64,000 bases of DNA from Escherichia coli (GTDB lineage: Bacteria; Pseudomonadota; Gammaproteobacteria; Enterobacterales; Enterobacteriaceae): assembly GCF_050920415.1 (NCBI RefSeq), contig NZ_CP169309.1; one strand, given 5' to 3'. Position numbers and translations under genes: made by a program. Positions 59,097-63,781 of this stretch are shown here, piece by piece. The notes below the pieces were generated by a model. The model made no database searches and was not told the origin of the DNA. It was given only the letters and a program-made list of their open reading frames with translations. How positions within the stretch are numbered: position 1 is the stretch's first letter; each line of letters begins with the position of its first letter.

Positions 59097-59987
59097 ATGA
59101 TGTTTAAGCAATACCTGCAAGTAACGAAACCAGGCATCATCTTTGGCAACCTGATCTCGGTGATTGGGGGATTCCTGCTGGCCTCAAAGGGCAGCATTGA
59201 TTATCCCCTGTTTATCTACACGCTGGTTGGGGTGTCACTGGTTGTGGCGTCGGGTTGTGTGTTTAACAACTACATCGACAGGGATATCGACAGAAAGATG
59301 GAAAGGACGAAGAATCGGGTGCTGGTTAAAGGCCTGATCTCTCCTGCTGTCTCGCTGGTGTACGCCACCTTGCTGGGTATTGCTGGCTTTATGCTGCTGT
59401 GGTTTGGCGCGAATCCGCTGGCCTGCTGGCTGGGGGTGATGGGCTTTGTGGTTTATGTCGGCGTTTACAGCCTGTACATGAAACGCCACTCGGTCTACGG
59501 CACGTTGATTGGTTCGCTCTCCGGCGCAGCGCCGCCGGTGATTGGCTACTGTGCAGTGACAGGCGAGTTCGATAGCGGCGCAGCAATCCTGTTGGCTATC
59601 TTCAGCCTGTGGCAGATGCCTCATTCTTATGCCATCGCCATTTTCCGCTTTAAGGATTATCAGGCGGCAAACATTCCGGTACTGCCGGTGGTGAAAGGCA
59701 TTTCGGTAGCGAAAAACCACATCACGCTGTATATCATCGCCTTTGCTGTTGCCACACTGATGCTCTCTCTTGGCGGTTACGCAGGATATAAATATCTGGT
59801 GGTCGCCGCGGCGGTTAGCGTCTGGTGGTTAGGTATGGCCCTGCGTGGTTATAAAGTTGCTGATGATCGAATCTGGGCACGCAAGCTGTTCGGCTTCTCG
59901 ATCATCGCCATCACTGCCCTCTCGGTAATGATGTCCGTTGATTTTATGGTGCCGGACTCACATACGCTGCTGGCTGCTGTGTGGTAA
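59097..59987 (+). CDS. cyoE: Protohaem IX farnesyltransferase (haem O synthase, 296 aa)
   Basis: Starts [18 protein letters not shown]; UbiA-family motif [15 protein letters not shown]. Confidence 0.92.
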
Positions 59988-60001
59988 CACAACCTCTCTA
60001 T

Positions 60002-60029
60002 AAAAAAGGTGCTACGGCACCTTTTTTAT
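60002..60029 (+). terminator. Rho-independent terminator of the cyo operon (AAGGTGC-TACG-GCACCTT then T-run)
   Basis: Perfect 7-bp stem, 4-nt loop, T-run, 15 bp after the cyoE stop. Confidence 0.8.
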
Positions 60030-60040
60030 TGTCTGAGAAC

Positions 60041-60067
60041 AGAGATACGGCTAATAACCGTATCTCT
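60041..60067. promoter_or_regulatory. Operator-like palindrome 1 (AGAGATACGG-CTAATAA-CCGTATCTCT) abutting the -35 of the toxin-antitoxin promoter
   Basis: Perfect 10-bp arms with a 7-bp spacer; shares the ATACGG/CCGTAT core with palindrome 2. Confidence 0.6.
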
Positions 60068-60095
60068 TGACAGAGTGAGTATATGAACATAAATT
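60067..60095 (+). promoter_or_regulatory. Putative sigma70 promoter of the toxin-antitoxin operon: -35 TTGACA (60067-60072), 17-bp spacer, -10 TAAATT (60090-60095)
   Basis: Consensus -35 hexamer and optimal spacing read directly; about 75 bp upstream of the antitoxin ATG. Confidence 0.6.
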
Positions 60096-60099
60096 AATC

Positions 60100-60118
60100 A
60101 TACGGTTGATAGCCGTAT
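60100..60118. promoter_or_regulatory. Operator-like palindrome 2 (ATACGG-TTGATAG-CCGTAT) just downstream of the -10, over the predicted transcription start
   Basis: 6-bp arms with a 7-bp spacer, same half-site as palindrome 1. Confidence 0.6.
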
Positions 60119-60171
60119 TATGCATGAGATCGACTCCCTACGATTTCATTCAGTTAATCAAAGAGGTCATA

Positions 60172-60483
60172 ATGCCTGGAAAAACAGTCGCTCTACCCGA
60201 TATCGATAAAACGCTGAAAAATGCGCGGGTTGAACTCAAAACCAGTCCCGACGCCAAAAACAAACTTCGTGAAGCTGCGCAAGCCGTTGGGGTAGATTTA
60301 AGCGCTTTTATTTTGAGCGCAGCTATGGAACGCGCCGAAAGTGTGCTTGATAACCAACGTCGCCGTGAGCTTTCGAATCAAAGCTGGGAACTGATGAACC
60401 AACTCATCGCTGAACCTGCTCAACCGACGCTCGCCCTCAAGGCGTTAATGAAAAGGAAAAACAGCGATGGTCGACAAGCATGA
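60172..60483 (+). CDS. DUF1778-family ribbon-helix-helix antitoxin (TacA/AtaR/ItaR/KacA-like), 103 aa
   Basis: AAGAGG ribosome-binding site 6 nt upstream of the ATG; sequence fits the family pattern (VELKTSPDAKNKLREAAQAVGVDLSAFILSAAMERAESVLDNQRRRELSNQSWELM); overlaps the toxin start by 17 nt. The track ORF at 60106 is an upstream extension. Confidence 0.8.
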   Translation: MPGKTVALPDIDKTLKNARVELKTSPDAKNKLREAAQAVGVDLSAFILSAAMERAESVLDNQRRRELSNQSWELMNQLIAEPAQPTLALKALMKRKNSDGRQA

Positions 60484-61009
60484 AGAGATTACTCTGCCCA
60501 TAGTCCTCTCCTGTAATTATCAGTCTGATATTACTTATCCTGGGCAAAAACAGTTTGATTGCGGTAACCCTGTTATCGATAAATTTGTACGCGCATCGCT
60601 AAAGAAAAGTGTGCGTAATAGCGACTGTGCTGCTAAAGCACTTATTGACAGACAAAGTGGTGAACTGATTGGCATCTGTACTTTTACGGCATATTCGCTG
60701 GAAAAACAACGCGTTTCTGGCGTCCTTCAGGGTTCACAACCTTCAGAGATTGGTGTTGTCAGATTAGTCATGTTAGGGGTAGCGCGGAAATATCAAAAGC
60801 GGGGCTTTGGTCAGGACCTACTATGTGATTTTTTTGAACATGTAAAAATAATTCACCGGGCATTACCAATTAAAGGGGTTTATCTTGATGCTGACCCTGC
60901 CGCCATTAACTTTTATACTCGTCTCGGCTTTGTTCAGCTTTCAGCGAGGCCCAATGTTTTCGGTGCTGTACCGATGTTTTTAGCGATTCAGCATATTCTC
61001 GCGGCTTAG
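60467..61009 (+). CDS. GNAT-family acetyltransferase toxin (TacT/AtaT/ItaT/KacT-like), 180 aa; predicted aminoacyl-tRNA acetyltransferase
   Basis: N-terminal FDCG motif typical of these toxins, acetyl-CoA motif A (QKRGFGQ), C-terminal YxxLGF; ATG overlaps the antitoxin 3' end. Confidence 0.8.
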   Translation: MVDKHEEITLPIVLSCNYQSDITYPGQKQFDCGNPVIDKFVRASLKKSVRNSDCAAKALIDRQSGELIGICTFTAYSLEKQRVSGVLQGSQPSEIGVVRLVMLGVARKYQKRGFGQDLLCDFFEHVKIIHRALPIKGVYLDADPAAINFYTRLGFVQLSARPNVFGAVPMFLAIQHILAA

Positions 61010-61253
61010 ATTTTTATCGCCTCCGGCCATGGCAAGTTTTGCCTCAGCCGGAGACTGAACAGCGTTACCACTTTTGTTCAATTGCCCCCGCTTTCATCAG
61101 GTCCACATCCTTGCCTTTAATGGTTGCCGTTGCGGCAACGATCGTGGTCCTTATAGCTGCACAAGATTTTCGTTCAAATTCCGGTTTATAAAGAATAAGC
61201 AACGAATTACTGGTAAATGAATCAAGCCGGTAATCTGTAAAGTTAATATCCAG

Positions 61254-62000
61254 TCAGTTTAAGCCGAAAGGTGCAAAGCCGACCGTTTGAATAGTTTCCT
61301 TACCTGACGGACTCTTGATGTTGTACGTAACACGAAGATTGGCCACTTCGCCTAATTTATTGGTTTTGGCAAAGAGGCTATCCATGCAGGAAAAACCTTT
61401 ATCTAAAAAATTATCCCGCATTCCAGAACGGGTAATCGTGATCACCGGTAACGTATCGTCAACCGTTTTTCTGTCAATCATATCTTTTCGACAGGCGGCC
61501 ATAAAGTCTTCCGGACCAGCATAAATGTGAACACCCTTATCAAGATATTCTTTCGCTTTACTACAATCCACCTCGACATACTGACCATTGGCGTACATCA
61601 TGCCCAACCTGGACCATGCTAAATTCACACCGCGTTGCGTAGCCTGATTAAATAACGCATACGCTTTGGCATAATCCACCCGCACCTGTTCACCTTCGTA
61701 GTAGATATCCCCCAGCGCTAACGGAGCTTCTTCATCACCTTGTTTAGCGGCTAACTCGAACCATTTAATGGCTTCCGGAACGTTGGGTTTGGTATCGTAG
61801 CGGGGCTGATAATATTCCCAGCCTAACAGGCTTTGCGCGTCGACATCCCCCGACTCAGCCATTTTATGCAGTGTCCTTATCACATCGGGGGCAGGCTTTT
61901 CACTGTATATGCTGTCATACAATTCATGCGCTTTCTCGCTTGCCAGTGAACCTTGTGAGGCAATTAATAAAATAGCCAATAAACTCTTTTTATTTAACAT
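61254..62000 (-). CDS. Secreted Sel1-repeat (TPR-like) protein with an unassigned C-terminal domain of about 85 aa (248 aa)
   Basis: N-terminal signal peptide (MLNKKSLLAILLIASQGSLA|SE), about three Sel1-like repeats (e.g. LGDIYYEGEQVRVDYAKAYALFNQATQRG, LGMMYANGQYVEVDCSKAKEYLDKG); the C-terminal 85 aa has no motif I recognise. Confidence 0.75.
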   Translation of the reverse strand: MLNKKSLLAILLIASQGSLASEKAHELYDSIYSEKPAPDVIRTLHKMAESGDVDAQSLLGWEYYQPRYDTKPNVPEAIKWFELAAKQGDEEAPLALGDIYYEGEQVRVDYAKAYALFNQATQRGVNLAWSRLGMMYANGQYVEVDCSKAKEYLDKGVHIYAGPEDFMAACRKDMIDRKTVDDTLPVITITRSGMRDNFLDKGFSCMDSLFAKTNKLGEVANLRVTYNIKSPSGKETIQTVGFAPFGLN

Positions 62001-62416
62001 AAATAACCTTTATGCATCCATCACTGTATTTTTCAATATACCTAACCACCAAACATCCACTTCATGAATAAATACACAGCCATAACAACCTCAGGTAATA
62101 AGCAAACATTTAAGCTGAAGCAGAATAACCAGCACCGCCAACACCTCTATTTATTGCGATAAAATAACACCATCCTTTAATAAAAAATCACACGCTCATC
62201 AACAAATCCGAAAATAATATCATTCGTGGCAGGATAAAATCAGGCGAGCTTTTCATTTGTTATATTTAACGCGCAAAGTATTAATGGCAAGAATACGAGA
62301 GAAGCGCATGCCTGACGTAAAAATCACGCTCTTATGTAATATTTACTCATTAACACTCTGTTTACCCAACATGCGCTCCGCACTACACTATGTGGGCAAT
62401 TTTTTAAGAGGTGGTA

Positions 62417-63781
62417 ATGAACGATTATAAAATGACGCCAGGTGAGCGGCGCGCGACCTGGGGTTTAGGGACCGTATTTTCATTGCGCATGCTGGGCATG
62501 TTTATGGTACTGCCGGTTCTAACTACGTACGGTATGGCACTGCAAGGTGCCAGTGAAGCATTAATCGGTATTGCCATTGGTATTTATGGCCTGACTCAGG
62601 CCGTTTTTCAGATTCCGTTTGGCCTGCTCTCAGACCGTATTGGTCGCAAACCATTAATTGTCGGCGGGCTGGCGGTGTTTGCTGCCGGTAGTGTTATCGC
62701 TGCGCTTTCCGACTCAATCTGGGGAATTATTCTGGGCCGGGCGTTACAAGGTTCTGGAGCGATTGCCGCTGCCGTTATGGCGCTACTTTCTGATCTCACG
62801 CGCGAACAGAACCGTACCAAAGCGATGGCGTTTATCGGCGTGAGTTTTGGTATTACCTTCGCCATTGCGATGGTGCTTGGCCCAATCATCACTCACAAAC
62901 TTGGGCTGCATGCGCTGTTCTGGATGATCGCTATTCTGGCAACAACCGGCATTGCGTTGACCATTTGGGTGGTGCCCAACAGCAGCACGCACGTACTTAA
63001 TCGTGAGTCCGGGATGGTGAAAGGCAGTTTCAATAAAGTGCTGGCGGAACCGCGGCTGCTGAAACTCAACTTCGGCATTATGTGTCTGCACATGCTGCTG
63101 ATGTCGACGTTTGTTGCCCTGCCCGGACAGTTGGCTGATGCGGGATTCCCGGCGGCTGAGCACTGGAAGGTCTATCTGGCGACGATGTTAATCGCCTTTG
63201 GCTCGGTTGTGCCTTTCATTATCTACGCGGAAGTTAAGCGCAAAATGAAGCAAGTCTTTGTCTTCTGCGTCGGGCTGATCGTCGTTGCGGAAATTGTGTT
63301 GTGGAACGCACAAACGCAGTTCTGGCAACTGGTGGTCGGCGTGCAGCTTTTCTTTGTGGCGTTTAATTTGATGGAAGCCCTCCTCCCCTCGCTTATCAGT
63401 AAAGAGTCGCCAGCCGGTTACAAAGGTACGGCGATGGGCGTTTACTCCACCAGCCAGTTTCTTGGCGTGGCCATTGGCGGTTCGCTGGGTGGCTGGATTG
63501 ACGGCATGTTTGACGGTCAGGGCGTATTTCTCGCTGGCGCAATGCTGGCCGCAGTGTGGCTGGCAGTCGCCAGTACCATGAAAGAACCGCCGTATGTCAG
63601 CAGCTTGCGCATTGAAATCCCATCGGACATTGCCGCAAACGAGACGTTAAAAGTGCGTTTGATGGAAACTGCGGGTGTCAAAGAAGTGTTGATTGCAGAA
63701 GAAGAACATTCAGCTTATGTGAAAATCGACAGCAAAGTGACGAATCGCTTTGAGGTTGAACAGGCAATTCGTCAGGCATAA
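62417..63781 (+). CDS. yajR: MFS transporter YajR with C-terminal cytoplasmic domain (454 aa)
   Basis: Starts MNDYKMTPGERRATWGLGTVFSLRMLGMF; MFS motif GLLSDRIGRKP; the GTG at 62411 is an alternative start. Confidence 0.88.
   Translation: MNDYKMTPGERRATWGLGTVFSLRMLGMFMVLPVLTTYGMALQGASEALIGIAIGIYGLTQAVFQIPFGLLSDRIGRKPLIVGGLAVFAAGSVIAALSDSIWGIILGRALQGSGAIAAAVMALLSDLTREQNRTKAMAFIGVSFGITFAIAMVLGPIITHKLGLHALFWMIAILATTGIALTIWVVPNSSTHVLNRESGMVKGSFNKVLAEPRLLKLNFGIMCLHMLLMSTFVALPGQLADAGFPAAEHWKVYLATMLIAFGSVVPFIIYAEVKRKMKQVFVFCVGLIVVAEIVLWNAQTQFWQLVVGVQLFFVAFNLMEALLPSLISKESPAGYKGTAMGVYSTSQFLGVAIGGSLGGWIDGMFDGQGVFLAGAMLAAVWLAVASTMKEPPYVSSLRIEIPSDIAANETLKVRLMETAGVKEVLIAEEEHSAYVKIDSKVTNRFEVEQAIRQA

Follow-up and report, generated by a model that had tools for sequence, protein, structure and literature searches.

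A natural variant of the ItaR–ItaT toxin–antitoxin operon between cyoE and yajR in Escherichia coli

ItaR–ItaT and other described GNAT toxin systems

The closest described relative of the gene pair analysed here is ItaR–ItaT of Escherichia coli HS (EcHS_A0501/0502; Wilcox et al. 2018, Zhang et al. 2020), a system that is already known and characterised and of which the present copy is a natural variant. When HS ItaT is expressed, MG1655 stops growing and its incorporation of 35S-Met is blocked within minutes; growth returns if ItaR is co-expressed, and the two proteins co-purify stoichiometrically (PMC6125619). The toxin acetylates the aminoacyl moiety of Ile-tRNAIle (PMC6125619), and Val- and Met-tRNA were later found to be substrates as well (PMC7367177). 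Toxicity is abolished by Y150A (PMC6125619), and across the two studies Y150A and Y150F abolish or reduce it (PMC6125619, PMC7367177). Mutagenesis has identified an aminoacyl pocket, V36/I37/F40/M102, which explains the Ile/Val/Met preference; roles have also been assigned to G115 (cofactor loop), Y150 (general acid) and L133 (dimer interface), and a basic patch of K39/R42/K46/K47/R50/K80/R82 binds tRNA (PMC7367177). Ribosome profiling places ItaT-induced pauses specifically at Ile codons, AUU and AUC more than AUA, and overexpression of Pth counters the toxicity (PMC9177977). Reports on specificity differ between in vitro and in vivo work, the toxin being described either as exclusive for Ile or as preferring Ile over Val and Met (PMC9177977).

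Other GNAT toxin systems are more distant from the pair found in the window, by which we mean the whole 64,000-nucleotide stretch of E. coli contig NZ_CP169309.1 (assembly GCF_050920415.1). KacA–KacT of Klebsiella pneumoniae (5ZGN, 5XUN) shares the two-gene architecture and the folds, as well as the catalytic Tyr and both motifs (FDCG and acetyl-CoA). However, KacT belongs to a different clade and matches the window toxin at E 1.7e-6 with ~27% identity over the aligned parts, and KacA matches the antitoxin at E 3.5e-11 (~35% identical over the aligned parts). AtaR–AtaT of E. coli O157:H7 (6AJM, 6GTS) likewise combines a GNAT toxin that acetylates aminoacyl-tRNA with a DUF1778 antitoxin and is autoregulated by the complex; AtaT is found at E 1.2e-5 and AtaR at E 8.6e-9 (~32% identical). 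AtaT is biased to Gly-tRNA and Met-tRNAfMet and is grouped in clade A, which is basal, while ItaT lies in clade B (PMC9177977). The TacA–TacT systems of Salmonella Typhimurium (TacT, TacT2 and TacT3; 5FVJ, 7AK8, 6G96) share family and chemistry, but their toxins match the window ItaT only weakly (E 8e-4 to 2e-3). Pth detoxifies the damage done by both TacT and ItaT (PMC9177977), and TacT is specific for Gly-tRNA in vivo. TacT also acetylates TacA, whereas acetylation of ItaR by ItaT was not seen (PMC6125619). A literature search for later work on ItaR or ItaT returned only letter-string false positives.

The itaR–itaT pair of the window and its allele

Both genes lie on the plus strand, with the antitoxin gene directly upstream. 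The itaR gene (60172..60483) runs from ATG 60172, which is preceded by AAAGAGG, to TGA 60481-60483 and encodes an RHH/DUF1778 (TacA1) antitoxin of 103 aa; itaT (60467..61009) runs from ATG 60467 to TAG 61007-61009 and encodes a GNAT aminoacyl-tRNA N-acetyltransferase toxin of 180 aa. The 17-nt overlap given by the first-pass annotation is exact (60467-60483). Longer itaR reading frames, starting at TTG 60106 (125 aa) or at the in-frame ATG 60124, were dropped: ATG 60172 was chosen because neither of the longer starts has a Shine-Dalgarno sequence and both conflict with the 11.4 kDa published for ItaR and with the 103 aa given by RefSeq. A search just 3' of itaT gave no canonical intrinsic terminator, and terminator-like matches inside the coding sequence (60926-60974) were not credited.

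Family membership is clear for both proteins. The annotation had read the antitoxin as DUF1778/RHH and the toxin as a GNAT enzyme of the TacT/AtaT/KacT/ItaT clade, and had pointed to an FDCG motif and an acetyl-CoA motif; profile searches and motif inspection bear out each of these readings. ItaR is matched significantly by the Pfam model TacA1 (PF08681, DUF1778 family) at E 1.3e-17 over residues 19-96 of 103, alongside KacA and AtaR in the PDB, and ItaT by the GNAT models PF13508, PF13673 and PF00583 (E 1.6e-7 to 8e-6). The FDCG motif occupies residues 30-33 of ItaT, and QKRGFG at residues 110-115 fits the acetyl-CoA motif Q/R-x-x-G-x-G/A, with G115 intact; the form Q-x-x-G-x-G was defined in PMC7367177. 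The catalytic Tyr, the general acid, is present as Y150 and is invariant in a family alignment of 10 sequences. By sequence, the pair is confirmed as a member of the DUF1778/GNAT type II toxin–antitoxin family, far beyond chance. An NCBIfam search with both proteins gave no family above its curated cut-off, and hence no specific ItaRT/TacAT model, the sub-threshold matches being MobA, MshD and PaiA only.

Among the four toxins with which the annotation had asked for an alignment, ItaT is nearly identical to the window protein and AtaT, TacT and KacT are distant. The best PDB match, 7BYY, covers the full length at E 1.3e-115; this entry is the ItaT(G115D) of E. coli HS, a mutant engineered to be inactive (PMC7367177), and G115D is the sole difference it shows beyond those of HS ItaT, the window protein having the wild-type G115. 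Against wild-type HS, ItaT is identical at 176 of 180 residues (97.8%) and ItaR at 100 of 103 (97.1%), in both cases with no indels. Over the 838 bp of itaRT there are 22 nucleotide differences, and the codon changes in itaT comprise 11 synonymous and 4 non-synonymous ones. The HS pair has the same protein lengths (180 and 103 aa), the same 17-nt overlap and the same chromosomal slot between cyoE and yajR, the gene order in the window being cyoB-C-D-E, itaR-itaT, a TPR gene and yajR. The differences are seven amino-acid substitutions in total and the neighbouring TPR gene, which is intact (311 aa) in HS but interrupted in the window. From this comparison, the window pair is almost certainly a minority allele of the chromosomal E. 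coli itaRT operon, a type II module with the mechanism described for HS.

Every residue assigned a function in HS is kept. The aminoacyl pocket (V36, I37, F40, M102) is identical, as are G115, Y150 and L133 for acetyl-CoA binding, acid catalysis and the dimer interface, and the tRNA-binding patch K39, R42, K46, K47, R50, K80 and R82. Because these residues are unchanged and the substitutions fall in variable positions, we infer with high confidence that the ItaT encoded by the window allele is active and shares its primary target with that of HS. The target would be, with good confidence, Ile-tRNAIle primarily and Val- and Met-tRNA secondarily (PMC6125619, PMC7367177, PMC9177977). The annotation had proposed aminoacyl-tRNA acetylation as the mechanism, which agrees with what is published for the near-identical HS toxin, and had held that the target could not be read from the sequence. 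The latter was too cautious: the pair is itaRT itself in the same slot, and near-identity together with unchanged pocket and catalytic residues makes Ile-tRNAIle inferable as the target.

By analogy with HS, the window's ItaT would be a dimeric GNAT enzyme that acetylates Ile-charged tRNA. The acetylated aminoacyl-tRNAs would be unfit for peptide-bond formation, so that ribosomes would stall at Ile codons and growth would stop. ItaR would neutralise the toxin by tight binding, the operon promoter would be repressed by the ItaR–ItaT complex and not by ItaR alone, and peptidyl-tRNA hydrolase should be able to undo the damage. Judging from the gene arrangement, translation of the toxin may be coupled to that of the antitoxin through the 17-nt overlap.

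The module is widespread in the species. Of 5426 complete E. coli genomes, 1368 contain the 838-bp sequence, nearly always as a single chromosomal copy, with at least 99% identity in 103 carriers (the window allele class) and 95-99% identity in 1265 (the HS/BL21 class); the copy in BL21(DE3) has already been noted in the literature. RefSeq holds a protein identical to the window toxin (WP_000227787.1), named GNAT family N-acetyltransferase, and labels the antitoxin only as 'DUF1778 domain-containing protein' or 'TacA family antitoxin'. The name ItaRT and the Ile-tRNA target can be safely transferred to the copies that carry such labels, a step of little importance beyond annotation.

From HS to the window, the substitutions are Q131R, A151T, T161R and A164V in ItaT and A6V, T7A and V11I in ItaR. 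One could suppose that the protein belongs to the same family, yet that the four toxin substitutions shift its substrate preference or lower its activity. The substitutions are real, Q131R and T161R both introduce new arginines, and specificity shifts are known within the GNAT toxin family (PMC9177977); three of the four also fall within the 30 C-terminal residues, a segment whose nucleotide divergence from HS jumps to ~9%. Moreover, A151T adjoins the catalytic Y150 and Q131R lies two residues from L133 of the dimer interface, and for this reason a quantitative change in activity is possible. However, all four positions are variable columns in an alignment of 10 ItaT-like sequences (51-98% identical) in which no variation is seen at M102, G115, Y150, K46 or in the F-x-C-G core; Thr151 is found in an Aeromonas homologue, and position 131 can be K or E. 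None of the four is among the residues shown to be important for the pocket, the cofactor, the dimer or the tRNA, and the allele appears to be a standing rather than a decaying one because its class, at 99% identity or more, occurs in 103 complete genomes. An altered toxin is thus very improbable, and the substitutions near the active site are probably neutral. The three changes in ItaR lie in the unconserved N-terminal tail (residues 1-15), residues 16-96 being nearly invariant among six antitoxins.

Promoter, candidate operators and the surrounding island

The 184-bp spacer between cyoE and itaR contains the cyoE terminator hairpin (60000-60029), followed by a sigma-70-type promoter at 60067..60095 on the plus strand (TTGACA, 17-nt spacer, TAAATT; 10 of 12 matches). 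Two 19-nt palindromes bracket its hexamers on the same strand. The upstream one, ATACGGCTAATAACCGTAT (60045..60063), lies just 5' of the -35 element and would be an ItaR/ItaRT operator half-site pair; the downstream one, ATACGGTTGATAGCCGTAT (60100..60118), overlaps the expected transcription start and is a second candidate operator. With one mismatch allowed, the pattern ATACGG-n7-CCGTAT has only these two sites in the 64 kb, against 0.07 expected. The K-12 locus, which is without the module, does not have it; all ItaRT-like loci that were fetched, in four unrelated contexts from other Enterobacterales, carry it upstream of their antitoxin genes. Spacer identity to HS is 177 of 184 positions, with both palindromes and both hexamers identical.

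In HS, a 172-bp upstream fragment drives ~40-fold reporter expression; ItaR represses it together with active or inactive ItaT but has no such effect alone (PMC6125619). The window promoter lies inside the homologous region. The founding ItaRT paper (PMC6125619) makes no mention of an operator or palindrome. The two palindromes are likely to be the ItaR/ItaRT operators, and repression would most likely occur through ItaR–ItaT at both sites flanking the -35 and -10 elements. This testable operator prediction, with the two palindromes conserved across Enterobacterales, is a new by-product of the analysis. A single match, to STnc50, came from an Rfam scan of 59800-62600; it scored 23.5 bits where the gathering score is 55 (E 0.7), overlies the cyoE terminator hairpin and was taken as chance.

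The operon lies in a stretch that K-12 lacks. Homology to K-12 ends at 60027 and restarts at 62338, with only 28 bp between these points in K-12, and from this gap it follows that itaRT sits in a 2.3-kb island (~60028-62337). The island, absent from K-12, contains itaRT and a convergent Sel1/TPR-repeat gene, and its left junction lies immediately 3' of the shared cyoE terminator hairpin. Neither flanking direct repeats nor mobility genes were seen for 60028-62337.

The TPR gene (61065-62000, minus strand) encodes a protein with a signal-peptide-like N-terminus. Codon 249, which is Arg in HS, is an in-frame TAA (61254-61256) that shortens the product to 248 aa instead of 311, and RefSeq lists the gene as a pseudogene ('internal stop') in the 100% identical strain MFDS1022581. 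The co-inheritance of this gene with the toxin–antitoxin pair, with 1367 genomes covering at least 80% of a 2.4-kb query, could suggest a system of three genes, a reading that its orientation and its decay both contradict: it is convergent and not co-transcribed with itaRT, it is interrupted in the window and a pseudogene in MFDS1022581, and it diverges much faster (87% identity to HS, against 97-98% for the pair). ItaR alone also neutralises ItaT in K-12, which is without the island (PMC6125619), and no TPR gene stands beside the ItaRT-like pairs in four other contexts. A three-gene system is therefore extremely improbable and was rejected, being effectively refuted by the pseudogene state and by the absence of linkage outside E. 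coli. A PADLOC match of the TPR protein to PtuA (E 3.5e-4) was dismissed as negligible.

Identity to HS falls along the island between 60900 and 62340. Over the toxin–antitoxin genes up to ~60900 it is 97-98%. It drops to 91% at the 3' end of itaT, where three of the four toxin changes lie, to 87% in the TPR gene and to only 55-75% in the spacer between the TPR gene and yajR. This sharp gradient suggests that the 3' end of itaT contains a recombination breakpoint and that the island exists as distinct haplotypes. The flanking core genes (59400-59987 and 62417-63781) are also unusually divergent for E. coli: the 3' half of cyoE is ~94-95% identical to HS and yajR ~95%, and 62338-63000, mostly yajR, is only 91.5% identical to K-12. 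The 5' part of cyoE at 59100-59399, the first 300 bp compared, is 100% identical to HS. Such a pattern would fit a hotspot of recombination around the island.

Relatives beyond E. coli and their possible role

ItaT-like proteins with 60-78% identity can be found in Salmonella, Citrobacter, Enterobacter, Klebsiella, Serratia, Pectobacterium, Dickeya, Providencia and Xenorhabdus, and one with 52% identity in Aeromonas. In four independent contexts, an overlapping TacA1 gene lies upstream of the itaT-like gene, with overlaps of 17-29 nt. The first is a Salmonella contig with a ParA/MipZ-like gene. The second is a Serratia lambdoid prophage, where the pair (L006/L007) occupies an accessory ('moron') slot between the small terminase gene and the lysis and antiterminator Q genes. 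The third is a P2-like prophage, with the pair (L010/L011) in an accessory slot between gpA plus a Dam-like methylase gene and the portal gene, and the fourth is an ordinary chromosomal site in Dickeya. These four contexts show the ItaRT-type pair to be a mobile two-gene cassette. Its presence in prophage accessory slots is a further by-product of this work, which bears on what such modules are for, and hints at a phage-related role for ItaRT-like cassettes.

A stronger form of this idea would keep the mechanism as described and assign the module a purpose in anti-phage abortive infection or in stabilisation of mobile elements, not in stress tolerance, with the E. coli copy domesticated or a relict. 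The pairs in lambdoid and P2-like prophage slots (65-76% identity), the pair on the contig with the ParA/MipZ-like gene and the location of the E. coli copy on a 2.3-kb indel island all point in this direction. However, a prophage location is only suggestive and the Dickeya copy has an ordinary chromosomal context. PADLOC matched no defence-system model to the antitoxin or the toxin, and no experimental report tying DUF1778/GNAT pairs to phage defence turned up in a literature search. Such a purpose is accordingly considered unlikely.

Upstream of the antitoxin genes, the distant loci differ from E. coli in their leaders. In these loci, a leader of ~190-260 nt separates the ATACGG-n7-CCGTAT palindrome from the antitoxin start. 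Within it lies a mini-ORF of 16-21 codons that follows a Shine-Dalgarno sequence, as in MRYFDNALNLNRFRCFL and MRNQINSAKLHRYRCLS, and that may be a leader peptide or chance (L004 3616-3666, L006 3587-3652, L008 3612-3665, L010 3612-3665). The E. coli itaRT leader is only ~70 nt and is without a mini-ORF. A more speculative proposal would treat ItaRT-type cassettes as mobile abortive-infection modules with a conserved operator, in which the leader mini-ORF outside E. coli could serve as a sensor and the E. coli copy would be leader-less; alternatively, the allele R131/T151/R161/V164 would have a shifted tRNA preference. Taken together, these two options are distinctly unlikely, and the itaRT operon with the mechanism and target described for HS is the preferred reading. 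The Dickeya and P2-like-prophage loci have, after the ATACGG palindrome and before the antitoxin gene, a second palindrome of the same 6-n7-6 geometry and of another sequence, TAGCGTAAGAAACACGCTA (L008 3574-3592, L010 3570-3588).
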